Origin: Botryllus schlosseri
Taxonomy: Eukaryota
Assembly (NCBI GenBank): GCA_051294905.1
Contig: CM119382.1
Coordinates: 10,540,001-10,604,000 of the forward strand
DNA: 64,000 nucleotides
Direction: 5' to 3'
In this document: piece after piece, positions 685 to 31,013 of the stretch
How the letters are laid out: every line of letters begins with the position of its first letter
Position numbering within the stretch: position 1 is the first letter of the stretch
The notes under the pieces: generated by a model
Told to the model about the DNA's origin: nothing
Database searches by the model: none
Seen by the model: only the letters and a program-made list of their open reading frames with translations
Made by a program: the position numbers and the translations under genes

Positions 685-1054
685 TAGGCTTACCATATTT
701 TGGAAATCTAAAAAGAGGACACTTTTTCAGAAATTTAAGACTTGCAAAACCGGAGAAGAATTCTCAAAAACCGGTAAAATTTTCCCACTTTGTGATCGGT
801 TGACTAAAAAAAAAAGGTCAACTTTTCGCTCAGAGCTAAAATCACCGTTTTTCACTCCGAAATACCCGCCGGAGCGTCACTTCTGTGCTAATTTACGGCA
901 TATCACTCGCAATTTGCTCTAAATCTGACCTAAATTGAAAAAAAAAGAGGACAAAATCCCAAAAAAGAGGACAAAAGGGCGTCCTCCGAGGACACTTTCA
1001 AAAAAGTCAAAATAGAGGACAAATTCTCTTAAAAGAGGACGTATGGTAACCCTA
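685..1054. mobile_element. hAT-type MITE (370 bp)
   Basis: Ends TAGGCTTACCATA...TATGGTAACCCTA; 8-bp TSD TAATATGG at 677-684 and 1055-1062. Confidence 0.85.
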
Positions 1055-1640
1055 TAATATGGCCATTTTTCAAAATAGCTTCGCGGGCCGTATGTTTGAC
1101 ACCCCTGCACTACACTATCTCCCCAGCCATGTGTGAGTTACGGATCTGATGTGTGAGCATAATACCAGTATAGAGTAGGGTTACCATTAGGGATGGTGTG
1201 AACCTCTGAAAGGTTCAGGTTCGTGTGAACGCGAACTTTTTTGAAAGGTTCTGTGTGAACACGAACGTGAACCTCATGACGTCACATGACGTCATATTGC
1301 TAATTCTAACCCTATCTTTCAATGAAGTGATAGCCTATATTAATGTACCTACACGATACCTAGCAACGACTCGGGCCACATAATGCCACAATGCTGAAGT
1401 ACATATTGGCGTACCAAATGTCGCTAAATGTATCAACTGATGCAATCAAGGATATAATGCTCCCATAAAATCAATATCTTCCCTCGCTTTGCCACCAATT
1501 TTCGCGAGGACTTACCAGGAAATATAAGCTTACGCCTTAGCGCGTTAGCGGTCTAGGCCAGACTGTACAATGTGTTCGGCGTCTGAGTATTGCTGCATTG
1601 ATATTGAGCAGAGTGTAAATCGGGTTTCTATACTTACTAC

Positions 1641-1978
1641 TGTGGATAGGCTCTAGCTCCCTCTCTCCTATCTGTATGGAGGAATACCACATCACGTGAC
1701 TTATCGCACAGTTATAACCGAGCGCATATCGCATATTAGCCCCTTTTGATATGAGACTCAACGTACGCCGTATAACCTACTGCTTGAAGTAACCATCCGT
1801 CCAATACATATGGAAAAGGCAATTGTCGTCTATTGAACTACCAGTCAAAGAGCTACACGCAGGACGTCGTTCGTATCCGCTAATGCCAGATAAGGATATT
1901 GTAAGCCGCTATCCATGACATACGGACTTGCGGTATATACCATCGCAGAATATCGGACAGACAGCTCCTTTCACCGCA
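1641..1978 (+). repeat. 5' LTR
   Basis: TGTGGATAGG...TTCACCGCA; identical by eye to 28269-28606. Confidence 0.92.
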
Positions 1979-2242
1979 TGATGCCCACGAGTGAATGACT
2001 TAGTTCAAACGAAAAGACTCTTTGCTACTCCATCAACGGACCATTAATACTCACCTGCGACGATACGGAAACTCACTGAGAACGCCAGGACTGCAAGACA
2101 CATCCGGTATTTACCCTTCTATACGATTTCTGGAATTGTTTGTCGGTCAGCAGTTCGCACATACCTTTCAGTTTAATTTTCCGTGTTATTCCGTGCTTTT
2201 GCCTATTACCATTTTCGTACATTTATTACGATATATATTAAT

Positions 2243-2666
2243 ATGGCAACCAGCAGCGAAACAGACGCAAGTGAAGCTCAAAATAAATCGCATAATTACG
2301 ATCTTAGAAACCGCAGGGATGAACCTGCTACTGGATCCGGCCTATCCGATGATAATGTTCAAGTCAACATAGGCCTACTTCGTGAAAATCAAAATGTCGA
2401 TGTCATAACTGCCGAAATTAACGGGCCTGTCTCTCAGACGGACGCCGAGGATAATGATGAGGCATCCTGGGGCGCGAGTAGTGAGATTCCCCGGAATGCA
2501 CCGCCTACCCGTGATCCGGTTCGCATGAATTTAGTTGTTGAACCACATTATCAATACGCTTCTCGCCCACGTGAGAACCGGCAAATTCCCTCATTCGGCT
2601 TGTCAAAGGAATATCGTGACACGTGTATTGAGGAAGCTGGACGCGCTATTAGTTCGGTTAAAGATG
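2243..2666 (+). pseudogene. gag-like ORF 5' part, interrupted by the Polinton
   Basis: MATSSETD...SSVKD; rejoining across the TSD gives VKDASFDRNAPALYF, similar to the Gypsy gag motif VKLPPFWxxDPxLWF. Confidence 0.55.
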
Positions 2667-3198
2667 AGTAGTTAGGTAAATGGGCGATTTGCCCGCATGC
2701 ACCCTATTTACTTAAACAAACCAAGATTATCATTATAATAAACAGTGTAAGAATTAGCTCATTCTCAGTTTTGCAGCAATACTCGAAGGGGAATTCCCTT
2801 CTGGCTGTGCGGCAATTAAAAAAGGGGGCTTGACTGAGAGAAAACGAACAAAGAATCTGGATTGACCTTTGTACTCAGACTGGAGTACTTCTACTTGTAC
2901 TTTTCCACTCCTGATTCTACCTCACCTCTGGACACGAGACTTGTATATTTGATATATATTATATTTTCCCGCGAATAACAATGGATTGACATTTAATTTC
3001 AATGGTGTGCACGCCGACGAATCGGTATAGTTCTCCTGTCTTGACGTGTCGTTCCGCGGTGGGTTGATTAATCCAATTGCGTGTAAACACGATGGGATTT
3101 GGAAATATTTGTCCGTCAAACATGACGTCAGTATAGTATTTGTTCCTCCGGATCCGTATGTGAGATCCCGGCTCGTGTTTTAGGTGGATTGTCAACGC
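2667..3198. repeat. Polinton left TIR (532 bp)
   Basis: Reverse complement of 24690-25221; four mismatches seen (2733, 2924, 3172, 3192). Confidence 0.95.
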
Positions 3199-3246
3199 GT
3201 TCGGCCAGACGAAACGATGCAAGGTAACGATTCTGGTCTGCGTCAT
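2959..3246 (-). CDS. Hypothetical 95-aa protein reading from unique sequence into the TIR
   Basis: ATG at 3246, co-oriented downstream of the protease gene; no recognised motif. Confidence 0.35.
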   Translation of the reverse strand: MTQTRIVTLHRFVWPNALTIHLKHEPGSHIRIRRNKYYTDVMFDGQIFPNPIVFTRNWINQPTAERHVKTGELYRFVGVHTIEIKCQSIVIRGKI

Positions 3247-3399
3247 ACTGTCGTAGTTGACCTCTTTTTGCTCCCTGGGTAGTAGCGAGTATGATATTTA
3301 TGATGCCAACGACTCCCCGAGCGCTCGTAAAAAGACTATAACGTATGCTGTACAAGGTTTATTGAACATACACAATCTGAAAATACAAGTCACGAGTGT

Positions 3400-3846
3400 T
3401 CACAAAGTAGATTTTTCTTTGTTTACAAAATCAAAAACGAGGCGATCATTCACACGTTTATCAGAACCAAAAGCATCTAAATAATCAAGGGTACCTACAC
3501 CTTGACCCTTTCTAATCAGGAAAGCGATACAATGTTCGCCGCACACAAACGAACGTAAAGACTGTAATTGCACACTAGTGAAGGTATAATCGTCCGCGCC
3601 CAATAACCTATAGATCTCCTTCTTCAGAGGCGGAATCCCGAAAGAGTCGTGAAAGTGCGTGCCATCTTGATCGGCGAAGATACAGATCCAATGCGAGCCG
3701 CCCTTCGCGTTAGGGTCGTAATTGATAACGACTGCGTACGGCTTAAGTAGCTTCGCTGGCAATAAATCGATAGCGAAAGTCCCGGCAAATAAATCTCGCG
3801 TGTCGCGATGATTGAATAAAATATGATTAATTTGATCGGTATTCAT
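3400..3846 (-). CDS. Adenain-like (C5) cysteine maturation protease
   Basis: GSHW (His), FHDSFG (Asp), QLQS...CGEHC (Gln/Cys); likely start MNTDQI at 3846 with ATGA overlap onto the MCP stop. Confidence 0.93.
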   Translation of the reverse strand: MNTDQINHILFNHRDTRDLFAGTFAIDLLPAKLLKPYAVVINYDPNAKGGSHWICIFADQDGTHFHDSFGIPPLKKEIYRLLGADDYTFTSVQLQSLRSFVCGEHCIAFLIRKGQGVGTLDYLDAFGSDKRVNDRLVFDFVNKEKSTL

Positions 3847-5117
3847 ACGGACACTACTTCCCGCTTCTCTGAGATCTCCAAAAGTTGTTGGTATTCTTTG
3901 GGACACAGTAGAGTCGCTCCTTCCGGCAACCCCGCGGTCAGGGTCATGTGAAGCTTCACGGACCCGGTCTTCTCGAGTTGAAAGCAGCCTTGATGCGTAC
4001 GGTCTGGAGTCAAATCGAACGCAAACAGAGTGTATCCCGCCTTATAATTCTCAGAGTCGATAAAAAGATCTTCCTGAGCATCCCACTTCCCGGTGGATTG
4101 GTAGACGCTGAAAAACCCCTCGAGGTTTGTGTTTTTATCAAAATCGAATCTGAAATTACGCCCGTACAAAAGCTTCCCGTTCACGTTGATAGCCAGATTT
4201 CCGACGTGATAGTGACAGAAATTAAAGGGGTTTCGAGTCTTACTACCGTTATAGGCAGCTGTCGGGACCAGACCAATCACGATACGTCGAGGCATGACCC
4301 CAGAAATCAGCGTTTTCTCAATGGAGGTATCACCCGCTCCAAAAGAGTGATTACTCATTTCGAGCTTTATAATAGGGTATTTCGCCGTGTGCGTACGAAG
4401 CATCGTTTTGTGTGCCAAACTGACAGAGTCTGAAACTTGGATTTGCTTGACGTGCAATTCCACTTTTTTCAGTATGATTTTAGAGTCGGCAGACCCGAGG
4501 AGACAGAAATCGTCATCGTTACGGATTAATCGCAACGACAGATCCACGTTATCCAGTAAATATCTGTCCTGGTCGAATAAACCGAGCGGTATCTTGCCGA
4601 TGACCTCGAGCGTTGCACTGTCGGCGGTCAGGGCTTTTCGTGCCGTGAAGCCGACGTTGTCTGCCGTGAAAGTATCCTGCTGTTTCATCGTATCTGGGAT
4701 CCAGCCGATACATTTCAGATAGGTTTCGCCGGCCGCGCGAGAGCTATTTAGTAGATGGAAAATGAAGCTTTTGTAGGCGTGATTGTTGTCCGATGTGGTG
4801 ATCAGCTTCGAGCCCAGATACAGATCGATCTGCTTGAATAAGGCGTCGAATATATCCGACACGACAGCGACGTTGTCTCCCCCGATCGTGGTGCAATCTT
4901 TTTTGGTCACTTGCAGTTGTATTTTCATAAACGAGCTGGACAAATCCAAGTAGTGATCGCTACCTTTCACGTTAATCTCAATGACATCGCCCAATTTATC
5001 CGGTGTGGCGATCAACGTGCTGGTGTCGGCGACCGCCGTTTGCGTCGGGGGTACCGTGAAAATATCTAATCCGCTGTTGAGGCACTCGGCCGAATTTTCG
5101 TGCATCAATTTAGCCAT
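3843..5117 (-). CDS. Double jelly-roll major capsid protein (hexon-like)
   Basis: MAKLMHENSAEC..GLDIFTVPPTQT start, YLDLSSS, NPFNF and YTLFAFDLTPD motifs typical of Polinton MCP; about 424 aa. Confidence 0.92.
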   Translation of the reverse strand: MAKLMHENSAECLNSGLDIFTVPPTQTAVADTSTLIATPDKLGDVIEINVKGSDHYLDLSSSFMKIQLQVTKKDCTTIGGDNVAVVSDIFDALFKQIDLYLGSKLITTSDNNHAYKSFIFHLLNSSRAAGETYLKCIGWIPDTMKQQDTFTADNVGFTARKALTADSATLEVIGKIPLGLFDQDRYLLDNVDLSLRLIRNDDDFCLLGSADSKIILKKVELHVKQIQVSDSVSLAHKTMLRTHTAKYPIIKLEMSNHSFGAGDTSIEKTLISGVMPRRIVIGLVPTAAYNGSKTRNPFNFCHYHVGNLAINVNGKLLYGRNFRFDFDKNTNLEGFFSVYQSTGKWDAQEDLFIDSENYKAGYTLFAFDLTPDRTHQGCFQLEKTGSVKLHMTLTAGLPEGATLLCPKEYQQLLEISEKREVVSV

Positions 5118-5508
5118 CGAATATATCTCTCCGTCTACGTTTCTTGTTTGACGTAGTACCTCCCCGCGCACCCTTTTTAAGCTTTTTCGTGGCTTTTCGT
5201 TTACGACCCCCGATCGCGGTATCGAGAAGCTGTAGACCTCCTTCTTTACTCCGTGATATAGCGGATTGCTTGAACGAGCGCCCGGCCACCAAATCTTTTG
5301 CGATATTCGACCCGGTACGGAGGATTTGTTTCCCCAGTATCTTGGAGCCTTTTGATACTAGAGGTAAGACCGCCCGGCCTATGGTTCGAAAAATCGACGC
5401 GAGTCCGCTACCGCTTTGCCTGGACCCCCGGTAAAACCCGTAATTCCCAGCTCCGGTCTGATAGTGGTGCAATACGGCTTCTCGGTCACAGCAATAGTGC
5501 ACTTTCAT
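5110..5508 (-). CDS. Basic core protein with putative protease sites
   Basis: YQTGAG and RQSGSGLASIFRTIGRAVLPL (glycine motif followed by an amphipathic helix); K/R-rich tail. Confidence 0.75.
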   Translation of the reverse strand: MKVHYCCDREAVLHHYQTGAGNYGFYRGSRQSGSGLASIFRTIGRAVLPLVSKGSKILGKQILRTGSNIAKDLVAGRSFKQSAISRSKEGGLQLLDTAIGGRKRKATKKLKKGARGGTTSNKKRRRRDIFDG

Positions 5509-5870
5509 AACGACACCCTGAGATGTATCGTGAGGTCCAAACCCGAGATGTCCAATAATTCACCATACTCGTCCCTTATATAGATGTAGAAATACTCGAA
5601 ACGGTCGAGTCTGACTTTGGCGTAGTATCGATTTTGAAATATATGGTTTTGTCGCTCCCCCTCGTGTAGCGCAACGACTCTTAGCAACGGGACCAAAGCG
5701 TCACCCACCGGCGTCGACTCGATGTCATTACAGTAGATAAAGGCGTAGAGGCTTTCGCCCGACTCACGAACAAAGTTTATCTCCATAAGAGCAATCTCAA
5801 GACCTTTACAATCCATTCCGTGGGGTAGGGTAAATACGGGCCCGTCACCGGTCAGTGTTTGGAACGTCAT
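5505..5870 (-). CDS. Minor capsid (penton) paralog 3, minimal 121 aa
   Basis: EIALMEINF, FIYCNDIESTPVGDALVPLLRVV and IYIRDEYG match penton strands. Confidence 0.75.
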   Translation of the reverse strand: MTFQTLTGDGPVFTLPHGMDCKGLEIALMEINFVRESGESLYAFIYCNDIESTPVGDALVPLLRVVALHEGERQNHIFQNRYYAKVRLDRFEYFYIYIRDEYGELLDISGLDLTIHLRVSL

Positions 5871-6624
5871 CTCGTAAGTGAAGGGTCAATTCAATGTCAC
5901 CGCATTTAAGTTCTTTTCCAAGAGAATCTCTTATGCTGATGCGTACGCTACGGAAGCTGTTGGCATCGGCGGGTAGGTAAAACGGTTTCCTGAATGATAC
6001 GTGCTGTCGTTTCATCTCCGGTACCGTAACGGGGATGATTCGTAAAAGTCTGGACATATAATCACCTACCGGGAGATGGCGCACGCAATCGCAATATATA
6101 AATAAATACTGAGATTTTACTATCGACGGGATATACCACGCATCGAATTCAATGTGCTCAACCTCGCGTAATGAGATCGGGACCTCTCCCTCCTCCGCGA
6201 TGATGTCGTCAATATCGTATCTCTGATGCTCGTGTATGAGACGGTAGTTACCGAAATTCGCGTAAGGCCCGAGCGTAGATGTGAACAGAGAAGAATTCGG
6301 TGGGAATCCCTCGCATACCAATCGATTCTGGCTGGGCGTAAAGTACCAGTGATAACCGTTCACGAGTTCCTCGCTAATTCTTTGCATTAGTTGATCGACA
6401 TTATCGAAATCTCCGGTGGGTAACTCATAGACTTCGGTGACGTCTTTGACAATCGTATTCCAGAAGCTCATGGCCCGGGTGGGTTCTGTGATCACAATTC
6501 TTTCTTGAAAGTCATGATTGAAGCTAATCTCTCGGAGAGCGATCTGTTTACCCTCCGATTCGATTTCAACCGGTAATTCAACCGTGAAATCGGGTCCGCT
6601 TCCGAATATCGTGATATAGCTCAT
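5845..6624 (-). CDS. Minor capsid (penton) paralog 2
   Basis: IALREISF, FIYCDCVRHLPVGDYMSRLLRIIP, PFYLP and ISIRDSLG. Confidence 0.82.
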   Translation of the reverse strand: MSYITIFGSGPDFTVELPVEIESEGKQIALREISFNHDFQERIVITEPTRAMSFWNTIVKDVTEVYELPTGDFDNVDQLMQRISEELVNGYHWYFTPSQNRLVCEGFPPNSSLFTSTLGPYANFGNYRLIHEHQRYDIDDIIAEEGEVPISLREVEHIEFDAWYIPSIVKSQYLFIYCDCVRHLPVGDYMSRLLRIIPVTVPEMKRQHVSFRKPFYLPADANSFRSVRISIRDSLGKELKCGDIELTLHLRDDVPNTDR

Positions 6625-7424
6625 AACGCTTTGACGGCTCCTCGACGGATCAGTAAAGTCACTGTAACGGGAGCTGTTTTAAACGCGACAGGGTTATTGT
6701 TCTTGTCACGAAGATATACTCGTATATTTCGAATATTACTCTTGGCCAGGGGAAAAAAGTAAGGTTTATCATATACACAGTGCTGTATTTTTCCTTCTTG
6801 CGCGGTCACCGGAACGCTTCGAAGGAGAGGTACTAGCTCGCTCCCGAATACACGAGGTCTGATCAGATCGGTGTATATATAAACGGTGTCTACATCTTTC
6901 ACGATGGTTTTCGGTCTGATTAAGAACTCTATTGGTTTTTGTTTCTTCAAAACATGATGTTCCACTGTAAAATAACGCGGAAACGTGTCCTCGATGCTGG
7001 TGAGACGCGGACCCGCACCACTGATTTTTTTGACCCGTATCAAGGGCTCGTCGGCCGGTGGAAACCGACTCTTGAGATACTCAAAGTTCAAGCCGAACAC
7101 GCCACCGGTATATCGCTTGATTGTAATTTCTTTCTCGTATCGCAAGCGAAACTGTTCCAACATATCTGGGACACTGCGATACTTGCCGGGCGGTATGTAA
7201 TACACGTGACGATGGCCCCTGTCAGAAAATTCGATACCCGCACGCTTGTGGTCTACCGTGAACGTGGGCTGGAAGCTCACTGGGAACATGACCTCCGCAA
7301 GCGATGCCTCATATCTTTCTGTATCATATTTTAACTCGGAGAATAGTTGGGTTACAAAATCGTTCGCGGTGTTAGCCTTAAAAACGCTCATTGAAGAATT
7401 ACTCGGTAAAACCAGAAGAGTCAT
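6621..7424 (-). CDS. Minor capsid (penton) paralog 1
   Basis: Canonical LPSNSS..F..NT..DF start; YIYTDLI..RVFG...VPLLRSVP, PYFFPL and IRVYLRD. Confidence 0.9.
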   Translation of the reverse strand: MTLLVLPSNSSMSVFKANTANDFVTQLFSELKYDTERYEASLAEVMFPVSFQPTFTVDHKRAGIEFSDRGHRHVYYIPPGKYRSVPDMLEQFRLRYEKEITIKRYTGGVFGLNFEYLKSRFPPADEPLIRVKKISGAGPRLTSIEDTFPRYFTVEHHVLKKQKPIEFLIRPKTIVKDVDTVYIYTDLIRPRVFGSELVPLLRSVPVTAQEGKIQHCVYDKPYFFPLAKSNIRNIRVYLRDKNNNPVAFKTAPVTVTLLIRRGAVKAL

Positions 7425-7596
7425 CTTCGTCGGCGGTTTGGAGAGACAGTACCCTAGTTAGCGAGGATATATCCGTCTGGGTTTCGGTGAATAAGTTGTA
7501 CACAGTTACACCCACGATAAAAAACAGTATCGCGAGCTGTAGAACCACCAAAGGTATCCGTAACGTACCCCGCTGCGATAAATCCATGATTACCAC
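7399..7596 (-). CDS. Small single-pass membrane protein (65 aa)
   Basis: Hydrophobic IPLVVLQLAILFFIVGVTVYNLF; fits the gap between integrase and penton. Confidence 0.5.
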   Translation of the reverse strand: MVIMDLSQRGTLRIPLVVLQLAILFFIVGVTVYNLFTETQTDISSLTRVLSLQTADEDDSSGFTE

Positions 7597-7617
7597 GGTC
7601 GAGTTGTCGTGTCTGTT

Positions 7618-8619
7618 TTATACAAAACCGTCAACGTAAGAGTCCATCGATTTTGGATAACCCTCCCAGCGCACTAGATATCTCCGCTTGCGCCCCCTCC
7701 CGATCACTTTCTGTATCGATTCGACGCGATAGACATCGTCTTTTTTATCGATGGCTTGTAATTCGCTTTCGTAGAATGTTCCACTAATTACGTCCCCGTT
7801 ATAATCTCGGATGGTGTACGTAGCGGGGCTTCCCCATTTCCGTGTGTGCACGTAAAATATCTCGCGAGTCCAAGACCCCGCTGTCCCTTTTGCAAACGTG
7901 GCACGTCGGGTGGTAATTCTCACTGGTTGATCGACGGGTAGCTTGGGTGACACCGGAGGTCCGGTTCCGTTGTATAGTCTATCGAACACCAGAGACGCGT
8001 TGCTATTGGTAACCTCTGACGGTCGCATCAAAATCGCGGTGTGATACGTTTGGTTATAGCTCTCTGCGATATCTCCCAGCACGTCGATGTAGCGATGTGT
8101 GCGGTTCTTGACAAAGTATCGATTCAATACATTGCGGGTCGTACGAATTACACGCTCTACGACGCTAGCCTTAGTATCGCTGTTGGTAAAAAAGTGCTTG
8201 ACGTGGTTGTCTCTAAAAAACCTCTGTATAACCGACCCCGTGAATTCTTTCCCGGCATCAGTCTGAACGACGTGTGGTCTCTTATGAGCGAATACCTGGT
8301 TGAAGCCCTCGATCATATCTATCGGACGCTTTCGTTTCGTGGCGTATAAAAACATATATTTCGAAAAACAACAAATTGACACCAACACATAACGATAGCC
8401 ATCATTGCTACTAGAAATATTAGACAAGTCCATGAGGTCACTCTGGATCTGAATAAATGGCCCGCCGACGATCGTCTTCTGTCGTTGAAATTTGCCGGTA
8501 TACGGATAGAACAGGGTGTAGCTATCCTCTTGTTTCAAATCCTTCTTGTCGGGGTGCAAGTATTTACCGCGATAGCTCGCCGGGGCTTTGATATCAAAAT
8601 ATTTATCCTTACTCGTCAT
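7618..8619 (-). CDS. Retroviral-like DDE integrase with C-terminal chromodomain
   Basis: QSDLMD, QTDAGKEF and SVVERVIRT; chromodomain YRVESI..RYLVRWEGY. Confidence 0.95.
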   Translation of the reverse strand: MTSKDKYFDIKAPASYRGKYLHPDKKDLKQEDSYTLFYPYTGKFQRQKTIVGGPFIQIQSDLMDLSNISSSNDGYRYVLVSICCFSKYMFLYATKRKRPIDMIEGFNQVFAHKRPHVVQTDAGKEFTGSVIQRFFRDNHVKHFFTNSDTKASVVERVIRTTRNVLNRYFVKNRTHRYIDVLGDIAESYNQTYHTAILMRPSEVTNSNASLVFDRLYNGTGPPVSPKLPVDQPVRITTRRATFAKGTAGSWTREIFYVHTRKWGSPATYTIRDYNGDVISGTFYESELQAIDKKDDVYRVESIQKVIGRGRKRRYLVRWEGYPKSMDSYVDGFV

Positions 8620-9061
8620 CGTCGTAGGCCGTCCACGATCCGTAGAGCTGGGGCGGCTTCCTGTTAGCTCGACGGCTACGTTTGATGATCTCTTGCAGTG
8701 GCGGTGATCTTTTGGCTATCTTGCTTGTGGTGGGGGTACTTGGAGACGACGGGGCTTTCGGTGTTACTTTCGAGGTGACCCGACCCGGCTTCACCTCGTG
8801 CAGTAATTCACGGAGAGTGGCTATCTGATCGTTCGTGAACCCGTTGGAGGTGTCGGTCATCTTCATCTGAAGAGGCTTGTCGATCTGACCCCGTTGACTT
8901 TTATACTTTGAGATGGCAGAGTTATACATGGACAATTTCTTGTCGGCCGAAACGTCCATAGTCAAAATCGCGCTGATCGATCGGTCCAACTCGGAGTTCA
9001 AATCAGTCGCGTTAGAGGGAGCCAGAGGGTTAGGCGATATGATCACTTTTTTGAAATTCAT
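8609..9061 (-). CDS. Polinton hypothetical 150-aa protein
   Basis: Tightly packed with overlapping stop/start codons; LDRSISAIL..KLSMYNSAI helix; basic S/P-rich tail. Confidence 0.65.
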   Translation of the reverse strand: MNFKKVIISPNPLAPSNATDLNSELDRSISAILTMDVSADKKLSMYNSAISKYKSQRGQIDKPLQMKMTDTSNGFTNDQIATLRELLHEVKPGRVTSKVTPKAPSSPSTPTTSKIAKRSPPLQEIIKRSRRANRKPPQLYGSWTAYDDDE

Positions 9062-9432
9062 TTTTTGCCAAAAACAGATTTCAGCAACGATGCCGCCAAT
9101 GGCAGGATTGATAAGATACCGCTAATAAAACCGCCTCGTTGTGTGTTGGCGTGTAATACACGTCTCTTGGTCTTCAAGCTCAACTTTTTACTTGTCAGCT
9201 TTCGAATTTTGTCTTTATGCGGGTGTAAATTTTGTATATGGCGTTTTGACAGTCGCAGATTGCCGTTCAAAACATTCACACAGACTTCACAAAATGCCTT
9301 CACCAAACCGGAAGAGCTACCCAATAATATATCCTTCCTTACCGCGGGCGACGCCTTGGACAGAAATTTCAAAGTCTCGCCGTGCTTCTTAATATAACAG
9401 TGACGTTTCGGCAGCGATTTGGTCCGAGCCAT
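9058..9432 (-). CDS. Basic core protein with a QRGG-F site and C-terminal amphipathic helix
   Basis: FCEVCVNVLNGN core and QRGGFISGILSILPLAASLL, typical of a conserved Polinton small protein. Confidence 0.8.
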   Translation of the reverse strand: MARTKSLPKRHCYIKKHGETLKFLSKASPAVRKDILLGSSSGLVKAFCEVCVNVLNGNLRLSKRHIQNLHPHKDKIRKLTSKKLSLKTKRRVLHANTQRGGFISGILSILPLAASLLKSVFGKK

Positions 9433-9470
9433 TATGAATATAGTGTCAAAAGTGTCGGTACTTTCGCTAT

Positions 9471-10112
9471 TTATAGTGGCGTGTACAACACGAGTTCATC
9501 CCCAGGAAACACCCCTGTTTTAACACGACTAGAATCGGGTGTGGCTTGCGTCAAATCTATAAAAATGTACCCGTGAGCGTTCTTTGTCGCATCGGCATAC
9601 GCGTCAACTAGAAACTTGGCGTTACCGGGGTACATTTGCTTGCCAAGAACTCGAATCTGAGATCGATCTCTAGGATTACGCATGATAATCAAATACTGGG
9701 TGCTGAGACTGAGGTCCCTCGATCTTTTGGACTGGAAATATAGATTTTGGACCGCGAATATTGTGGTCACCGAGCCGTGATTCGCGTAGACTGTAAAAAA
9801 GGGGGTCACCCTGTCCGAAAATTCCATTTTATCATCAATAATTAATAGAGTAGGACACGGGCGGCTTGTCGCCAACTCATCCAAAATGGAGAGATCCGAG
9901 TAAAACTCAACGCCTTGTAGCTCGTTAAAGGAGTCTTGATAAGCCGTATAGCAATAGATAATTCTTTTAATTCGCCCCTTTGAAAGCTGATCGATATTTT
10001 TTATGACTTTAAATATAAAAGTACTCTTCCCCGAAAACGACGGTCCTGCTAAAAGACACGCCCTCCCTGTCGAGAAATCCATCACCAAGGCTGTTTTGAC
10101 GCGACGAGACAT
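9471..10112 (-). CDS. FtsK/A32-like genome packaging ATPase
   Basis: Walker A GPSFSGKST, Walker B LLIIDD, and AVQNLY. Confidence 0.93.
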   Translation of the reverse strand: MSRRVKTALVMDFSTGRACLLAGPSFSGKSTFIFKVIKNIDQLSKGRIKRIIYCYTAYQDSFNELQGVEFYSDLSILDELATSRPCPTLLIIDDKMEFSDRVTPFFTVYANHGSVTTIFAVQNLYFQSKRSRDLSLSTQYLIIMRNPRDRSQIRVLGKQMYPGNAKFLVDAYADATKNAHGYIFIDLTQATPDSSRVKTGVFPGDELVLYTPL

Positions 10113-10235
10113 GTATTCACAAACACACTTCTATATATATATAACAAGGATAGGTACACGAAAAAATATGGCGATTCAGAGCGTCACGCAAACCGTCCAC
10201 ACAGCGAATCTTACAATGTCCACGACCCCGTCTTT

Positions 10236-11796: not shown

Positions 11797-12057
11797 GATT
11801 CCTTCTATACGCTGATAAAATCTGAAAAGAAAAACTCATTGTATTATACAATCATGAAACACAATACGCTTTTCCCCACCTGCTGTAAGCTATTGGCCTG
11901 TGGAGTTAATGCTATCGTCTGTAAACAACGCGAGAAAACGAGCACTATTGTGAAAGGTTCAAGATGCATAGAATAATTCGAATCAACATGAGAGCATAAT
12001 GCGAAAACAGGTTTAAAAAAAAAGCACAGAATACGGAAAGTGCACATTTGGAAAAAA

Positions 12058-13012
12058 TCATAGTTCCAAGGGTCTCGTATGAATACCGTCTGATTCGACT
12101 ATTCGTTTACAGTAGAAGTGAGACAGGGCCGATCGAAATTGCTCATAGGTAAAAATGGAGGCATTTTTCCGTACAAAACCCGAATTAATATCCCCATGAG
12201 GTTTTTTCTCAAACAACACTTTCCGGTAGATGTCAGCAGTCAGTTTGTTTACCTTTGAGAGCCCTTTACACGAGTACTTATCCTCATTGCAATAATAAGT
12301 CTTTGCGGACAGACCAACGAAAATATTCGATTGTGCCTCAATTTTGAAAAGACCACTGGTCCGTTGATCATATCGATTACGAGCTTTACAACAGGCACGT
12401 TTATCATTGAACGATAGAGGATTGGCCAAAAATTCGCTACGGTGCTCATCACAGGCGATTGCTGGAAAATATTTGTGAAAATTTTCAAAAAATTCTGCTT
12501 GTTTTTCGGGTTGTACAACTTTTAGCAGGCTGTCAGAGGAGATAGCGCCGTACCAGGAATCAGTGTCCGAGTATAATAGTTCAATGGACCGTGGCAGGAG
12601 GTAGGTGGACATATACGAATGGAACCGTAATAAGGCCAATTTCGCATAACCATACACAAAGTACCCAATGTGGTTAGGTTGGTTCCAAACATGTTTTCTC
12701 AATTTCATGGTCACCTCAAAAATATCTGGTGACAACTCAATCATTGATTTAAATCTGGAGTCATTTACCAAGACCATAGCTTTTTGACGGTTAACAATCT
12801 TGACATCAGAATATTTTGTACAATTCGAGATAGTTTTACCTATACAGGAATTTCCAATGTCCTTATAGAACTGCCCTAGTGGCTTCTGGGACGGGTCATC
12901 GTCAGCCCGTCTTCTAGCCTCGGTTATCGTATCTACAAGAGAATTGAAACATTCAATGGGTTCAAACTCGATAGCTTGAAATATCTTAGTAACGATTAAC
13001 CCATTCTCGAGG
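12058..13012 (-). other. Duplicate 3' part of pPolB, cut by the assembly gap
   Basis: Matches 18012-18966. Confidence 0.9.
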
Positions 13013-21000: not shown

Positions 21001-21887
21001 TTCACGTTTTTAATATAACATGAATGTCTTCCTTCTAAATGTACGTTAATTTTCAACCCCTCCCGAGCACCGTGTCGTAGTATATAACCGACTCCTTCTT
21101 TCAATGTGTAGACACAGATGGATACTTTAAGACATGACTCGACTTTATGTAAATCGGCCATGCATACCCCAGAATCAGGGTCCCCATATAAAGCGGAATA
21201 TTGTGCCACCAGAGAGAGCGTTTTAGACTGCAAGTCGCCATCACTATAGTCAACACCACAAAGCATAACAGCGACACAGCGGAATATACAGTAATTATCG
21301 TCATATGGTACACCACGTCGATTTTTCATTAAAGTTAAAATACTACGCGAATTCACAATAGACTTTGGTATTTCGATTGTACTACACCCAATTAATCTGA
21401 AGTCAGATTTGTACACATAAAAGGTCACGTTTGTGACTGCCAAGACAACAAATTTAGTATCGTCTCTTTGAAAGCGAGCACTCTCGAAGCCAGCGGCCAG
21501 GTCTATATCGTCTACAAATTGGTCAAAGTCACTGCGATTGGCAATCATTTTAGGTGTATCCAACATAACACCCGCGTTCTCGGACGCATGATAGTATCTC
21601 AATTCGCTTGTCTCAACATTATCAAGTATGTGGGCAAAAGCGTAATTGATTCGAAAACCATACTGTTGTGAGACGAAGATGTCCTGTAGATCGTTGATGA
21701 CGTCACTTGGGTTGCGGCCGAGTATACGGAAATTGTGTAGACTGCGTATACTGTGTGGTGCGAGAGTGGAGCTGCGAATGGAGTGCCAGTTTTCTTCCAC
21801 GATCTCGATCAGATTTTCAGGTATACCCAAGCTGCTTGGTTGTGCGAAATCAGACACAATTCTAACAAGGTGTCGTCGCCTAGACAT
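18012..21887 (-). CDS. Protein-primed family B DNA polymerase (pPolB)
   Basis: Exonuclease motifs FDYES, FNGSRYD and FPYNYF; polymerase motifs LDSNCLY, KDIGNSCIGK and YSDTDS; first likely Met MSRRR at 21887, preceded by a splice acceptor. Confidence 0.96.
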   Translation of the reverse strand: MSRRRHLVRIVSDFAQPSSLGIPENLIEIVEENWHSIRSSTLAPHSIRSLHNFRILGRNPSDVINDLQDIFVSQQYGFRINYAFAHILDNVETSELRYYHASENAGVMLDTPKMIANRSDFDQFVDDIDLAAGFESARFQRDDTKFVVLAVTNVTFYVYKSDFRLIGCSTIEIPKSIVNSRSILTLMKNRRGVPYDDNYCIFRCVAVMLCGVDYSDGDLQSKTLSLVAQYSALYGDPDSGVCMADLHKVESCLKVSICVYTLKEGVGYILRHGAREGLKINVHLEGRHSCYIKNVNSYCKNYSCETCHRLFSSKYYLDRHNCFKDIPNHYRGGMFKPEPTIFEALDELGIIVPKPSRFYPYNLVFDYESILQKGSTPNDTTNVHYVDCHIPAAVAFACNFPGYETPEVLISDGDPGALVARMMSRFELIQSECFEALCQQFHDVLERLDCIAEEMHTTEPDVKRMSPATLLKQRFLNYLSQLPVFSFNGSRYDIPLIIPYLVEYLSDPISIVKRGTSYMSLSTSRFRFLDVTLYLGAGTSYDAYIRCHNCASTKAFFPYNYFTDLSVLDEKSLPDHIHFYNKLKRSNITDEQYLWCQSKWAEHKMTTFRDYLSFYVSLDVGPLLEALTKHKQLFARYSIDMAKHGISLPSLASRLVFNSIPPVFTLLNQKYSHIHTLIRENLRGGLSVVSLRYAEAKVTKIKPQIYGDSALPVEQVLGLDSNCLYLDTLRSRLPGGYPCLWSPNEDFTLFSRTKTAPLYGKMAHQWLSYIAHCRGVKIQHQFNGPEHRIGLLQICIDGYYRTPQGPVALELFGCFHHGHGCELGASPDRQARWAATQRKIQYIQKVGYKLEYITECQWVIMRQRSDIAAFIQTLESSKMVKCRVLSSSKLLELVSKDQFFGAVEVDIHVPSHLKEHFSEFCPLFKHAYVSRDDIGPYMKAFAEQHGFLKRPRKFLIATLQATKTLLITPLLKWYLENGLIVTKIFQAIEFEPIECFNSLVDTITEARRRADDDPSQKPLGQFYKDIGNSCIGKTISNCTKYSDVKIVNRQKAMVLVNDSRFKSMIELSPDIFEVTMKLRKHVWNQPNHIGYFVYGYAKLALLRFHSYMSTYLLPRSIELLYSDTDSWYGAISSDSLLKVVQPEKQAEFFENFHKYFPAIACDEHRSEFLANPLSFNDKRACCKARNRYDQRTSGLFKIEAQSNIFVGLSAKTYYCNEDKYSCKGLSKVNKLTADIYRKVLFEKKPHGDINSGFVRKNASIFTYEQFRSALSHFYCKRIVESDGIHTRPLEL

Positions 21888-22483: not shown

Positions 22484-22499
22484 AGATTTGTGATTATAA

Positions 22500-22850
22500 G
22501 CTCAATTTACACTTACTTATAGACACTGTAGCCACATGACAAAGCAGAAGAAGGTACGTAACACAGTTTAACAGTGCCAGCAAAACGCGGGAAGGCATTT
22601 TATGACCCTCCACTCGCCTTTTCCCCCAACCATTTGAATATACATACAAGCCTCTTTTTTCTCTTGTGCCATACTCGCATACCCAATTTACACTTACTTA
22701 TAGACACTGTGAGCCACATGACAATTGGAAGAAGGTACTTAACACAGTTAAATAGAGCCGGCAAAACTCGGCAAGAAATTTTATGACAATCTACTCGGCC
22801 TTTTTCCCCCAACCATTTGAATATAAATACAAGACTCTTTTTCTCTAGTG
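22500..22850. repeat. Two imperfect tandem repeats of about 180 bp in the divergent intergenic region
   Basis: CAATTTACACTTACTTATAGACACTGT...CCCCCAACCATTTGAATATA occurs twice (from about 22503 and 22684). Confidence 0.9.
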
Positions 22851-22875
22851 ACATACTTACAGGCATAATTACATC

Positions 22876-23583
22876 ATGGCATGTAAATACAACCCGTACG
22901 AAAATATTGCCAGGAAGCGCAAGCTAGATACTGACTTGAAACAGGCTGCCCCGTCTCATATCCCAAATTTTGACAATGCTACCAGTCTCTATGGCACGCA
23001 AGTCAGCTTCGATGGACGTGTACAACTGGCGTCGACCAGACGACATGGACCCAAGATGACTTATATGAAAGTCTTGATCACAGATGGTAAAAAATCTCTA
23101 CCAGGAGTGATATTCAATGACAAATTACTGGACTGCATCGAAACTGCATACAGACAAGGTCATACTATGACATTCTGTAACATCAAGATCACTGCTGACG
23201 CAAGAACTGATGCCCCGTCATTAATCATTGGTCGCAATTCTACTGCTACGAAGAGCAAAGCACGCTTACCCTGTCCAGAGATGGTTGAATTCCAGTACGT
23301 GTCCGCAGAAGATATCCAAAAAGGCTTGTATGATGACAAGATTGTTAATTACAGAGGTCTCTGTATTGCCACGGATTCTGAATCCATTGGCACAAACTCG
23401 GAGAGACAGCTACATTCATATGCACTAGTGAATGGTGACATTTCTGTTGATCTGAAAAATTGGGGTATTATACCGTTATTCACTGCTGACAAATATTATG
23501 ATGTCACCCATCTACGTGTACAAGTCCGATCAGGCAAACGTGAGCTGTTCTTACAAGACTATTCGCGTATTTGCAAAGAATGA
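22876..23583 (+). CDS. Putative tandem OB-fold ssDNA-binding (RPA-like) protein
   Basis: 235 aa; RKRK NLS-like motif; OB-like strands VLITDGKKSLPGVIF, VDLKNWG and YDVTHLRVQVRSGKRELFL. Confidence 0.6.
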   Translation: MACKYNPYENIARKRKLDTDLKQAAPSHIPNFDNATSLYGTQVSFDGRVQLASTRRHGPKMTYMKVLITDGKKSLPGVIFNDKLLDCIETAYRQGHTMTFCNIKITADARTDAPSLIIGRNSTATKSKARLPCPEMVEFQYVSAEDIQKGLYDDKIVNYRGLCIATDSESIGTNSERQLHSYALVNGDISVDLKNWGIIPLFTADKYYDVTHLRVQVRSGKRELFLQDYSRICKE

Positions 23584-24689: not shown

Positions 24690-25221
24690 GCGTTGGCAAT
24701 CCACCTAAAACACGAACCGGGATCTCACATACGGATCCGGAGGAACAAATACTATACTGACGTCATGTTTGACGGACAAATATTTCCAAATCCCATCGTG
24801 TTTACACGCAATTGGATTAATCAACCCACCGCGGAACGACACGTCAAGACAGGAGAACTATACCGATTCGTCGGCGTGCACACCATTGAAATTAAATGTC
24901 AATCCATTGTTATTCGCGGGAAAATATAATATATATCAAATATACAAGTCTCGTGTCCAGAGGCGAGGTAGAATCAGGAGTGGAAAAGTACAAGTAGAAG
25001 TACTCCAGTCTGAGTACAAAGGTCAATCCAGATTCTTTGTTCGTTTTCTCTCAGTCAAGCCCCCTTTTTTAATTGCCGCACAGCCAGAAGGGAATTCCCC
25101 TTCGAGTATTGCTGCAAAACTGAGAATGAGCTAATTCTTACACTGTTTATTATATTGATAATCTTGGTTTGTTTAAGTAAATAGGGTGCATGCGGGCAAA
25201 TCGCCCATTTACCTAACTACT
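24690..25221. repeat. Polinton right TIR (532 bp)
   Basis: Reverse complement of 2667-3198. Confidence 0.95.
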
Positions 25222-25227
25222 AAGATG

Positions 25228-28200
25228 CATCTTTTGATCGAAACGCGCCCGCTTTATACTTCATTAACTAGTACGTATGGCCACATCGATTTCAGACGCT
25301 AAAGCCACCGCTAATACTTTACAACACTAATGCCTAACCTAACCTAATGCCTCCTATTTGTTGTTTGTTTTTGACTACGGAACTAAACACGTATTTTAAT
25401 TGACTCGGGAAGTGCAAATAACTTCATAAAAGCCCTGACTGATTCATTTGGTAGTCCTACGGTCGCGTTCCGTTGTCCAAATGAAACGATACTTCTCGGC
25501 TATGGTCAATCGCAATTGACGCTTTCATTCGGTTCTTCGGTCGATTATACGTTCAGTTTTGAGATCGCATCGCTGCCCTATTGCATAATTGGCGCGGACT
25601 GCCTTCGCCATTTTGATTGGACTCTAAACATGCGCGAGCGCACGATTAGGGATGAGCACAATCAAATAACGATCTCAGCCGTTTCGGACGTTCAGAAGGC
25701 AGGTTTGGTATCTAACATGACGTTACATTGTAAAAATTACAGCATCGCAGCACTGCTATCACGCTACCAATCAGTTTTTGATTCTGAACTCGACAGACCG
25801 CCTCTACATGAATTTGAATTTGATATACAGTTAACACATCACGCGTCATTTGTTGGATCGTTTAATCTGTCGATTCCCCTTACGCTATTGTACTAAACGT
25901 GTTACCTAAATAAAACTAAGCATGACTGTTGTACACAAAATTTCGACTTCTGGGACGACGCTTGACGGCGCCTTGGAATTTGCAAGATTATGACCTGTCA
26001 TTAATTTTCGCAGAAAACTAGCTGCACATTTTATATCAATTTTGCCTCAATGACTTCGCCATTGTCTTGATGACAATAGCGTGGTCTCGGTTTTCTTTCA
26101 TCTTTTGTTCTAAGTCTATATTCATTATTAGACTACCTTGCTTGATTTTTCATTGTGCAGATATGGTCGCCATGCAATTTTAGTGCATGGCTACTGATAT
26201 CTGGTCACAGATATCCGTGAAACATTTTTGTATACTCACGATTCTCTTAACATCACCTATGCCCATTACAGCTATACTTGGGGAACTCGTGAAGTTGGGG
26301 TACGGTTGAAGTACGGGGTCTGTAGGTCTTCGCTTTCGCTCCCGGGTCGTATATGTAATGCCGTGAGCACGGGGAAATTACGCTTCCAAGTAATTTTCCT
26401 TGTACTGGCTTTGATATCTCGCCAAACCGTTTTTAGATATGGGGACTGCTGGTGCGCGATTCAGCAATTCTAATGCGCATGGAATTTATGATTTGCAACC
26501 CCCCAGTTCAAACTCATACTATTTACTTTCACGATTGCATAACGAAGCAGAAGTAGAGTCCCGCCGACTCGCGTCTCGCCCGTGCGCCATTTTCTCGAAA
26601 TGATCCACTGACCGGACATTATCATACGGTTTTTGGATAAAATAATTATCCAGCGTTTAGGCAAATTATACCTAGAACACCGTTATTAAGGCGTATTCCA
26701 CCGGTCGATACGCCATTATTATTATTAATCAGCCTTCGAAGCACACGAAAGTAGCTGGGCGCACGTTTACATTTGCGATATGTTAGGTGTGCGTGCTGTG
26801 ATTATTACTTATTTGATTATTCTTTATCTTTCGATTCGTTAGCGGACCGAGTTATTGATTAGCCCGCGTCGACATGGCGATTTGATATCGACACTCGACT
26901 TAGTTCGCCAGCACAATGCACGTGTTTCGACATGCCTTGTTGACCCGTTTGGTTTTCATTTTTATTCTGCGTCATGTGTATGACGTCACTACTACAAGTA
27001 GAAGTAATTGCAACATATAGCGGTGCTAGGATTCCACCTACAGAGCTGATCCGCAATCTGCTTCGTTGCCTGCCATATGTGCATTTCGCAATTTTGTGTA
27101 TACGTTTGCTTGCTACCAGTGTGTTTAACATTTTATTTTGCTCGCCTGTTGTTAGTATCCAATTTGCGACTGCTGCCGGCTTGTCTTACAATTCCAGAAA
27201 CTCGTACCCGACATTCGTGCCGCCCCACCGAGAGTCGCGCTAGAGTACCGGATGCCGGAGACGCTCATTCGAACTTTCACCTGCTGCCGATACCAGAAAC
27301 TGCATCATCACTTCGAATTGGAACGCTACACCGATTGCGTCCTATAGCCGATCGCGCGCTGGCTACGAATGCGTTTCGTACCAGAAGATTATTACGGCTT
27401 CCGCGACGGTTTTCGCGTTTAACGAAAGTCGACCACCTCCGATCGAGGGTCGTGAAAAGGCATCTGAGCAGTTCCTGCAGGCAGGTTCCCGCCATCGGCG
27501 GTGTTATGAAATATTACGATGAGCATTGACATTGGTACAACCCGGCATCCTCGCGACCCCACCACGTTGAGATATTTTTATTTTCGCCTATCCCACGTGG
27601 AAAGCACATTTTGCGTGCTCGACTGATTATGGCGGCACATTCGAATGGAATTTTGATTAACAGACGTTTCTCGCAACCATTTCGCAGCATGTCTTTGTTC
27701 TGCCTGGATATTTCCCATCGCTTTTTACAATTTTTCTCCCATCGCATCAACACTTACCGCCGCTCCCTTAAGCTTTATTCGATTATTAACTCCCAGCGGT
27801 TATGGAAATTAGAACATTGGTGGTTCACAATAACACACAACTGGTTGCTCTATTTTTCGTTCGTAAATAGGGTCACCACATCCTTCCCACACTAATTATC
27901 CATTCGTCTCAGTCGATTATGAATTAAGTGCGGCGGTAGTGCCCTATATTACAGCGGTTGGCGGCAACTTCTAATCCCTTGTCGATCTCCGCCATTCGCT
28001 TCCCTTGCCCTTACCTTTCTCTTCTCTCATTTAAATAAAACATCAAAAAAAACTTTTTTTGTTGCCTTTTCCAACCATCATGTAGTTGTATGCAATTGTA
28101 TCTTGGACCACGGGATTTGACCTCACATGATAACCATCCGCTGCAATCAATCCATACATTATGTATTTAACTGTATTGCGATTATTTCATTTTGTACTTG

Positions 28201-28268
28201 CATCCCCTGTTACATTTAGTAACCTATACGATTTGATTATCGCTATCACTCCCTTTTAGATGGGACAG
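25228..28268 (+). pseudogene. Degenerate Gypsy gag-pol remnants
   Basis: Protease LIDSGS (about 25395) and IIGADCL (about 25590); RT-like CLDDNSVVS (about 26060); RHFLE (about 26585); integrase-like SIDIG and TDYGGTFE (27520-27650); many stops and frameshifts. Confidence 0.7.
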
Positions 28269-28606
28269 TGTGGATAGGCTCTAGCTCCCTCTCTCCTATC
28301 TGTATGGAGGAATACCACATCACGTGACTTATCGCACAGTTATAACCGAGCGCATATCGCATATTAGCCCCTTTTGATATGAGACTCAACGTACGCCGTA
28401 TAACCTACTGCTTGAAGTAACCATCCGTCCAATACATATGGAAAAGGCAATTGTCGTCTATTGAACTACCAGTCAAAGAGCTACACGCAGGACGTCGTTC
28501 GTATCCGCTAATGCCAGATAAGGATATTGTAAGCCGCTATCCATGACATACGGACTTGCGGTATATACCATCGCAGAATATCGGACAGACAGCTCCTTTC
28601 ACCGCA
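28269..28606 (+). repeat. 3' LTR
   Basis: Direct repeat of 1641-1978, preceded by the short purine-rich tract AGATGGGACAG. Confidence 0.92.
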
Positions 28607-29214
28607 CTACCGATATTTCCCCATTAACAAGTTATACAGCAGTAGCCAACACCTCAATCGCACGGATTTGGTTTTAATGATGCAGTAAAAATATGAAGTC
28701 AAGATTAACCCCGTACGCCTGCTAGATTTTTTACATCAGAAAACGATATCAATCTCATTGATTGGTTGAATAAGCATCATTCGCTGACTATATGTATTTC
28801 GCTCGCGATGTTGTGTGATTGCGGGTCAAGCTCGCAGCAGCGAGTCAATAAATATTCTCCAACGGAGAGCTGGCTATTCCGAGCAAACTTTTGTAACAAA
28901 GCAAGTAAAACTTTTGAGATTGTCAAGGTGCATGCTCGTTTAATGTTGATTTTTTTATGCTGCCAGCGCCATGCACAGAGTGGCCCGCAGTTGAAATGCA
29001 ATAAATTGGAATCAAAGATGTTATAATGAAGTGAAAATTGTAATATATGAAAAAGGTTCACAGTGCAGAACCTACCAAGGTTCTGTTGTGAACGCGAACC
29101 TCTAAATTTCAGAGGTTCACACACAGAACGCGAACGTGAACCTCACGTTCACACCATCCCTAGTTACCATATTTCTGTGACCATAGAAAACTGTTTTCTA
29201 TGTTGTGACTATAG

Positions 29215-29791
29215 AATGTAAACGTGGAATGGCAGCGACCGATTTTGCAGCGTCGTTCCGCTTCGCTGAAGCTTTACTCAGACTTATTTTACGGCAGCTA
29301 CTGTAGGATTTCTGGCAATCCAAAAGTTGTCTTCCAGAGCTCAGAATTTACTGAATCTGGTCTTGTTCGAAAGCTACTGTCGCACTGATTCCGAAAATGT
29401 AAATAAACCTATGATCAGGCACTGAACCGCTTAGAATTCGCCCTCCAAGTCTGAATTATCGGCATTGTCCGAACAATCGAAGAGCCGCAATGGGTCATTG
29501 TTATGGTCATTGTTTTGCGGTCATCCGATTGTTCTGAACAATGCAGATTTTAGATGTTGAGGGTGATTTATCATCTCAGTACGGTGCTTCACCATATTTT
29601 GATTGGTATTTTCGAAATCAGTGCGACAGTAGCTTTCGATCAAGACCGGATTCAGTAAATTCCGAGCTCTGAAAGACAACTTTTGGATTGCCAGAAATTC
29701 TACAGTAGCTGCCGTAAAATAAGTCTGAGTAAAGCTTCAGCGAAGCGGAACGAAGCTGCAAAATCGGTCGCTGCCATTCCACGTTTACATT
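29215..29791. mobile_element. Fold-back MITE with inverted arms of about 180 bp
   Basis: AATGTAAACGTGGAATGGCAGCGACCG... inverted at about 29606-29791; no TSD identified. Confidence 0.75.
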
Positions 29792-31013
29792 GACCCAAAT
29801 TCCGGCAACTCTTTAGCGCCCACTAGTGGATTTTAAAATGAGTTATGACGTCACACTAGCAAAGCTTTGCTCATAGAACAGAGGTGGTCACGAACCGGTT
29901 CAGGAGTATGTGGCTGTGTGTTGTGTAACCGGGACCGAAAGCACATGTTTTCAGCCCCTTCCCGCCCAAATAATCAATGATTTTGAGCCCACCATAGGGT
30001 AGTCGATGTAACTTCTGGGACGGGTGGCTTGCTACATGAATCTGGTTTCTATAGGCATCTGGTCGTTAAATTTTTTGAATGAATTCTGTCAATAATATTG
30101 GTTGTTCTGTATATTACTAGATAGTTACTACTCTCCGCCCACATGATCAGAGTTAGCGGTAGAACTGGTTTGGATCATGAGTTTGAAAATACAGGGAGCG
30201 TAATTGTACATCCTTAAGTCGTGTTCATGCCCCACCGATAAGATCGTTTATCAGCCTTATGCCGGTGCGCACCACGGAGCTTTATAAACACCTCACATCC
30301 GGTGGTTTCCAACCTTTTATGGTCGCGACTCCATCTCCAATTTGAAAATGTTCCGTGGCCCAGATCAAAATTTGACGAGCTGATTACTAAAAGAAGTCAG
30401 CACCTTTGCCCAGACTTACTCACGGGCTATTTTGGAAGCTGATTACGTTCAACATATTCGCGAACCCCAGAATAAAGGCAAATGACCCCCACGTTTGGAA
30501 CCACTATCTTTGAATAAAGCATTTAAACGGCCTTTAGCGATCTCTAGGAATATACCGTTCTCCTATAATTGCGATTACAATTAGGCTTATTCCAGTGAAT
30601 GAAGGTTTTTTATTTTATTTATATTTTATTGCAGTTTTTGCGAGGGTGGTGTAGTCTTCATATTAAAACAATAAATATGGTAGTAAATCGCGCCCAGCGC
30701 GAAGAAAATTATCATGCATCAGCATAAATATTCCCAAAAATAATGTTTTTATGTTGATTTACGAAAAAATTATGAGCCTACGTCAAGTCTTCAAAATTCC
30801 GGACATTTGGCATATTTTAGAAATTCCTCCCGGACGCTAGTTTAAACAGTGAAATTCCGGACATGTCCGGGAAATTCCGGACGTATGGCAACCCTAGTAT
30901 AGAGACTCCTCTATAATGCCAGTCTGAAAGGTCCCGTCAAATAAAGCCTACTTGGAAATATTCTCTGCTTTACTTCTCATTCAGTGTGCATTCTTAATCT
31001 ATAGAGTATGACT

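Follow-up and report, generated by a model that had tools for sequence, protein, structure and literature searches.

The transposon nests of maize are well-known clusters of transposable elements (TEs) lodged one inside another. A nest of the same kind lies at positions 1168 to 30904 of a 64,000-nucleotide stretch of the Botryllus schlosseri genome (contig CM119382.1; hereafter the window). It is four layers deep: an outer hAT-type element (layer 1) contains a hAT miniature inverted-repeat TE (MITE; layer 2), which contains a Gypsy derivative with long terminal repeats (LTRs; layer 3), which in turn contains a Maverick/Polinton (layer 4). In the human genome, nesting was reported to be common, with guests favouring older TEs and preferred positions within their targets (Levy et al. 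2010, PMC2836564). Nesting of guests into older elements is also described as common among plant LTR elements (PMC6911290), and retrotransposons nested in Polinton-like viruses have been described (PMC12220804).

The Botryllus nest resembles the clusters of the first two reports in that guests interrupt their hosts, carry target-site duplications (TSDs) of their own, are stacked over several levels and show a target preference. It differs from them in that hAT, Gypsy and Polinton elements form one chain and all TSDs are unmutated. Among the papers listed in full-text searches, none had a title or opening of the abstract that described a hAT-hAT-Gypsy-Polinton chain. Few subscription journals were covered, and this absence counts as weak evidence.

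In this repeat-rich genome the nest is ordinary in kind, and its outline was correctly given in a preliminary description made from the sequence. We consider it, with a probability of about 80%, to be an ordinary transposon nest, formed by successive insertions in non-coding repeats that lie roughly 1 kb upstream of a gene that we take to be SRRM1-like. It illustrates nesting cleanly enough to serve for teaching, and its presence/absence markers could be used to date four families relative to one another, among them a Polinton that inserted recently and still has open frames. Its weight would grow only if genome-wide counts were to give targeted insertion into hAT ends, or movement of a Polinton as the cargo of a MITE.

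Four layers with exact target-site duplications

The ends of the elements are defined independently of the TSDs, by terminal inverted repeats (TIRs) in layers 1, 2 and 4 and by LTRs in layer 3. When repeats of 3 to 11 bp were tried at these ends, all four layers gave an exact match, each at a single length. Layer 1 is flanked by GTATAGAG (1168-1175 and 30897-30904) and layer 2 by GTTACCAT (1180-1187 and 29163-29170). Layer 3 is flanked by CTAC (1637-1640 and 28607-28610) and layer 4 by AAGATG (2661-2666 and 25222-25227). With the ends fixed, the joint chance of the four matches is 3.9e-16, given the base composition.

The four-layer nest is real, with each scar intact. Every boundary and TSD proposed in the preliminary description is present and exact, the element classes and the order of containment hold, and the left copy of GTTACCAT does lie within the TIR of layer 1, as had been claimed. 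Without their guests, layers 1 to 4 measure 1,738, 1,005, 4,405 and 16,601 bp, the last with an assembly overlap counted once. The whole nest is 29.7 kb long as assembled and about 23.8 kb with the overlap counted once.

This overlap adjoins a scaffold gap of exactly 100 N inside the Polinton (13013-13112), and neither was noticed in the preliminary description. The 5,854 bp behind the gap (13113-18966) are an exact copy of those before it (7159-13012; 5,854 of 5,854 identical). Identical sequence on both sides of a gap means that the left and right halves of the nest come from different contigs. Assemblies often contain, in error, the same sequence at the two contig ends that face a gap (bioRxiv 2020.05.22.110833), and 13113-18966 is probably an unmerged contig overlap, that is, a false duplication. 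It doubles the integrase gene, an ATPase-like open reading frame (ORF) and their neighbours, leaves two fragment ORFs at the gap and would inflate the Polinton gene counts of the assembly.

A junction that consists of a gap within a repeat raises the question of whether each contig ends in a different Polinton copy, in which case the nest would be a scaffolding artefact; near-identical Polinton sequence is indeed present in other sequencing runs. Such a mis-join is hardly credible. All 26 letters of the four TSD pairs agree across the gap, as do the two LTRs at every position and the hAT ends of layers 1 and 2, and for this reason the join is very probably right. In addition, the two halves of layer 2 are contiguous in other copies, and the overlap runs without a mismatch over its 5,854 letters.

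Insertion history and choice of site

Contigs from 4 of 24 public runs (X1, X5, X6 and X11, representing four samples from four studies) were compared with region 1-3300 of the window. Run X1, the best match, may be the source sample. No RNA run was among the 24, which carries no information on expression. All figures for contigs that leave the window sequence (loose ends) refer to the matches listed, and counts of absent ones are limited accordingly. The preliminary description had proposed a search for the empty version of each site. This yielded the MITE without the LTR element and two contigs that depart from the LTR element where the Polinton begins, and none for the outer element among the 24 loose ends listed. 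Behind position 1640, loose ends in 32 contigs of X5 and 24 of X6 have a consensus that equals 28611-28640 at 29 of 30 letters. These contigs thus represent other copies of layer 2 that lack the LTR element and are joined as predicted; no such row is among the loose ends listed for X1 and X11. One record from X6 (record 32) and one from X11 (record 15) follow layer 3 to 2666 and then diverge for 40 and 26 letters, respectively, as would layer 3 copies without the Polinton, whose sequence beyond 2666 would match that from 25228 onwards. The two records differ from the window by 3-4%.

It had been claimed that the order of events can be reconstructed completely. The order of containment is secure, whereas the order of events at this site is probable rather than complete, because nesting shows that a guest entered its host, not that it did so at this locus. 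Layer 1 was present before layer 2, since the TSD of layer 2 is made of layer 1 TIR sequence, which the insertion has parted from its subterminal motif. Layer 3 had very probably integrated already when the Polinton entered it, because other layer 3 copies appear without a Polinton and because an RNA intermediate of 21 kb would be unlikely. Entry of layers 3 and 4 into layer 2 at this site is probable.

Alternatively, the LTR element, alone or already with its Polinton, could have entered layer 2 elsewhere, and the resulting unit of 5-22 kb could then have moved into the outer TIR as cargo. Both ends of layer 2 are intact, as such a move would require, and no allele with layers 1 and 2 only is among the rows listed. 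However, cargo transposition demands a rarer event than insertion in place and is very improbable. Among the rows listed, at least 7 of 453 layer 2 positions in the window deviate from the letter found in most family members, while the two LTRs of layer 3 do not differ. A MITE that predates the LTR insertion would fit this pattern, although the difference in divergence does not date the last move of the MITE.

As an ordinary nest, the locus would have arisen in four steps. First, a non-autonomous hAT-type element, whose TIR and 8-bp TSD are still present, would have been inserted by a hAT transposase acting in trans. A high-copy Ac-type hAT MITE then inserted at GTTACCAT, a near-consensus target that happened to lie in the TIR of layer 1, thereby probably immobilising layer 1. 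In the third step, a Gypsy deletion derivative, presumably using the enzymes of an autonomous relative, entered the MITE and left its 4-bp TSD. Finally, a Maverick/Polinton entered the first ORF of the Gypsy element, producing the 6-bp TSD. Such insertions would hit DNA that is dispensable to the host and hence persist, each layer widening the neutral target. The assembly broke in the multicopy Polinton, leaving the 100-N gap and the 5.9-kb overlap as a likely artefact.

The site had also been called a recurrent insertion hotspot. This is not shown: the window has three hAT-in-hAT nests, the left flank consists almost wholly of repeats and the target site fits a consensus. The three nests all have intact 8-bp TSDs (1176>1188, 42074>42239 and 54463>55551). 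A scan of the window for 8-bp repeats next to 12-nt inverted ends, which left out rows lying wholly within the duplicated 7100-19000, gave 20 rows, compared with a mean of 1.25 in 20 block shuffles. Six of the rows are palindromic words in the Polinton TIRs, five lack hAT-like ends and look like chance matches and nine are hAT-like elements, three of which lie inside another of the nine and a fourth inside an unlisted repeat. Four hAT-like elements cover 23% of 30905-64000, and most new insertions in the window fall in older ones. To the left, 14 of 15 depth bins over 1-1650 look high-copy, with a summed contig depth, which is a rough sign of repeated DNA and not a copy number, of 1e5-1e6 in X1 as against 1e2-1e3 in the interior of layer 3.

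The target of layer 2 likewise appears typical. Loose ends before 1188 occur in 278, 240, 67 and 75 contigs of the four runs with a flank agreement of 0.36-0.39, and flanks as mixed as these are the mark of a high-copy family's terminus. Their consensus ends in (G/C)T....AC in every run, which is the nTnnnnAn target of Ac-type hAT elements (PMC8961557). GTTACCAT fits this target, as do 159 of 1,719 positions (about 9%) of the layer 1 body, and an insertion in the TIR therefore needs no special cause.

In a true hotspot, the left end of a TAGGGTT-type hAT family, or a site close to a promoter, would attract insertions beyond what the consensus explains; possible causes would be bound transposase or an open chromatin state around the promoter of the SRRM1-like gene. 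Position-specific hotspots within target TEs have been published (PMC2836564). At this locus, layer 2 sits in a TIR, the adjacent MITE described below is 121 bp away, and a PWI-domain gene starts about 1 kb downstream of the nest, a position that fits a local preference. Against this stand the fit of the site to the general target consensus of the layer 2 family, the location of layers 3 and 4 outside TIRs and the occurrence of similar nests in introns elsewhere in the window. Overall, a hotspot is quite unlikely.

Some observations do weigh against ordinary nest formation as the full account. The left end of layer 1 has taken a second insertion, some 12 bp inward of the layer 2 site, and the right end of the sister family of layer 1 is joined to the left end of layer 2 (1054->1188) in 4, 3, 0 and 1 contigs of the four runs, both of which point to some local preference; such joints, with middle letters that were not read, occur in 8 contigs, compared with a total of 660 loose ends at 1188. 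The continuation of records 32 and 15 onto 25228 is extrapolated rather than read. Neither an empty site of layer 1 (1168-1175) nor a partly filled allele is among the loose ends listed, and no listed contig spans region 1-3300. Lastly, "ordinary" is judged from a single 64-kb window. It is unlikely that one hAT family offers other transposon families a recurrent landing site in its terminal 25 bp or that layer 2 moved as a 22-kb cargo. If the former were true, elements would disarm the ends of their rivals and seed deep nests; if the latter, a MITE would have carried a retrotransposon together with a virus-like Polinton. An ordinary nest remains the preferred account of the locus.

The elements of the nest

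Layers 1, 2 and 3 are described on the forward (+) strand. The left TIR of layer 1 is reduced to its outer 12 bp (1176-1187), the last eight of which are the layer 2 target, and the non-coding body and right end follow at 29171-30896, with subterminal CCGGAC repeats at 30799-30877. The TIR is 13 nt long with one mismatch, the TSD is compatible with both hAT consensus types (Ac and Buster), and neither layer 1 nor layer 2 has an ORF of 75 amino acids (aa) or more. The left end of layer 1 also contains about 610 bp of extra sequence (29183-29790), representing one or more insertions with uncertain boundaries and TSD length, that the preliminary description overlooked. This sequence begins 11 bases in, with a 21-nt hairpin followed by a palindrome with 213-nt arms, and is flanked by two copies of TGACC. 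The family motif AAATTCCGG restarts at 29797, with the same spacing as in the left end of the adjacent MITE. In a scan for further elements with TIRs and TSDs within layer 1, the 21-nt hairpin alone was convincing. Short elements of palindromic structure, with ends of the TATAG/CATAG type and 7-bp direct repeats, occur at 29182-29202, 57279-57325 and 31013-31072 (the last exact).

The adjacent hAT-type MITE is 370 bp long (685-1054) and flanked by TAATATGG at 677-684 and 1055-1062, which is of the nnnTAnnn type, the target of Buster-type hAT elements (PMC3517528). The presence of a related MITE at this position had been noted and is confirmed by a TIR in common with layer 1. The subterminal repeats differ, being CCGGAC in layer 1 and GAGGAC in the adjacent MITE, and judging from these ends layer 1 is its sister family. 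Loose ends occur before 685 (X6 and X11) and behind 1054 (X5, X6 and X11), with mixed flanks that are mostly of the nnnTAnnn type. A joint from 681 to 1067 in all four runs indicates that this MITE is itself inserted in another repeat, a further level of nesting that was not noticed before.

Layer 2 has a left part at 1188-1640, with a perfect 16-nt TIR and subterminal repeats of the GTGAAC type, and a right part at 28611-29162. No further elements with TIRs and TSDs were found inside it in the scan. Layer 2 and the adjacent MITE are present in many dispersed copies with the same ends (1188, 685 and 1054). Together with layer 1, they share short TIRs and 8-bp TSDs, and they resemble the Ac and Buster hAT MITEs of the sources cited above (PMC8961557, PMC3517528) in these features, in their subterminal repeats and in being non-coding. 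The target of layer 2 is Ac-like, and that of the adjacent MITE Buster-like. Compared with known hAT families, the parent transposase of these elements was not identified, and layer 1 (1.7 kb, inner insertions included) exceeds the usual length of a MITE.

Layer 3 has two 338-bp LTRs (1641-1978 and 28269-28606) that are identical at all 338 positions, begin with TG and end with CA. Behind the 5' LTR follow the leader and the start of an ORF (1979-2666) that begins at 2243 and is cut by the Polinton. It has no Pfam match and, from its position, is presumably the start of gag; 142 aa of the ORF are retained. The remaining internal part (25228-28268) contains an aspartic-protease-like stretch (25387-25830) preceded by stop codons, and no further elements with TIRs and TSDs were found there in the scan. 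A HMMER search with the protease-like stretch gave 124 relatives at E<=0.001. Of 30 relatives scanned, 8 have RVT_1 and 12 an aspartyl-protease family, in the order gag, protease, reverse transcriptase, RNase H, integrase; the integrase lies downstream of the reverse transcriptase in those relatives that have one. A word-index search among longer proteins confirmed 0 of 515 candidates, unlike the HMMER search, and there was no meaningful match in the PDB.

In its TG..CA LTRs, its 4-bp TSD and the gene order of its protease relatives, layer 3 resembles non-autonomous derivatives of Ty3/Gypsy. No reverse transcriptase, RNase H or integrase was found by search in its own frames, and it is thus a deletion derivative rather than an autonomous member of the group. 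The candidate primer site, not assigned to a tRNA, has TGA instead of TGG after the 5' LTR; a purine-rich 11-mer precedes the 3' LTR. The identical LTRs cap their divergence at 0.9% (95%), although gene conversion may hide the age of LTRs (PMC7251063). LTR positions 1688 and 1883 depart from the majority in all runs, yet are the same in both LTRs of the window, and this copy probably derived from a diverged parent. That the Polinton TIRs differ at 4 of 532 positions and the older LTRs at 0 of 338 was considered as an age paradox and rejected, as the difference is not significant (Fisher p 0.16). The TIR differences may have been inherited, or the LTRs may have been converted.

Mavericks were described as elements with long TIRs, (AGT)2//(ACT)2 or (AG)3//(CT)3 ends and a mean length of 16,862 bp (Barreat and Katzourakis 2021, PMC8097293). 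By its sequence, layer 4 fits this description. Its 532-nt TIRs (2667-3198, + strand, with an AGTAGT end; 24690-25221, - strand, with an ACTACT end) match at 528 positions, it has a 6-bp TSD and it measures about 16.6 kb with the overlap counted once. Like the published elements, it carries ORFs for a protein-primed DNA polymerase B (pPolB), an integrase, a major capsid protein, an ATPase-like and a protease-like protein. The core genes are on one strand, as in Xenopus tropicalis and unlike most vertebrate elements in that report. Layer 4 differs from known Mavericks in having three paralogous minor-capsid-like ORFs. In all, 16 ORFs span 76% of the Polinton.

The genes of the first contig are on the - strand at 3400-12777, including small ORFs and the end of pPolB. 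First comes the protease-like ORF of 148 aa (3400-3846), which adjoins the capsid gene. It has no Pfam match, one unnamed relative at 74% and no meaningful PDB match, and its single-sequence fold has a pLDDT of 33.6. Motifs with H, D and C were picked out by eye against what we take to be the adenovirus-type cysteine protease pattern. The major capsid ORF (3843-5117) falls in double-jelly-roll-like Atlas clusters at 0.98, 14-30% of whose members have PF21738 (double-jelly-roll); it has no confirmed relative in viral_contigs and no sequence match in the PDB. Between it and the integrase are three ORFs (5505-7424) that are paralogous to one another (E 5e-12 and 1e-14) and, from their position, probably encode minor capsid proteins; a 132-aa ORF is also in this gene row. 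The integrase ORF (7618-8619) matches rve (PF00665) above the cut-off, at E 5.1e-08, and was the only Polinton protein to match in a PHROGs scan. The ATPase-like ORF (213 aa, 9471-10112) has Walker-like motifs by eye and only sub-threshold P-loop matches in Pfam (E 0.003-0.004). The complete pPolB ORF (1,291 aa, 18012-21887, - strand) falls in Atlas clusters with DNA_pol_B_2 (PF03175) at 0.96-0.97 and has no direct match in Pfam or PHROGs and no meaningful one in the PDB.

Two further observations concern the right part of the Polinton. Divergent ORFs of 159 and 235 aa are separated by two copies, 86% identical, of a non-coding 175-bp unit (22503-22857), which is possibly a duplicated promoter. 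The 235-aa ORF (22876-23583) is an accessory gene on the strand opposite to the core genes, with no match in Pfam or PHROGs.

Genes and other repeats in the window

About 1 kb from the right end of the nest begins a multi-exon gene (31909-51073) with PWI-domain exons at 32783-32905 and 33057-33227 and exons rich in arginine and serine. Its name, SRRM1-like, and its start at 31909 follow what we take to be the N-terminus of that protein. An apparent second multi-exon gene, encoding a charged, coiled-coil-like protein, was made out by eye at 57757-60900. Searches of the window with ARAGORN and Rfam gave neither a tRNA nor any Rfam family.

The second hAT-in-hAT nest consists of an element at 42074-45195 that holds another at 42239-44654, both flanked by exact 8-bp TSDs; TIRs of about 180 nt bound the inner one, whose interior may hold a decayed transposase. 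The third, also with exact 8-bp TSDs, is an element at 54463-56452 that holds one at 55551-56264. A family of palindromic repeats with 133-nt arms is represented by several partial copies (47256-47626, 38647-38779 and 47858-47935). At 62500-64000 lies a Gypsy-like gag-protease remnant with Pfam matches to a zinc knuckle and an aspartyl protease, interrupted by two 258-bp copies (62875-63132 and 63576-63831) that are 97% identical and, by eye, have the look of a tRNA-derived short interspersed element.

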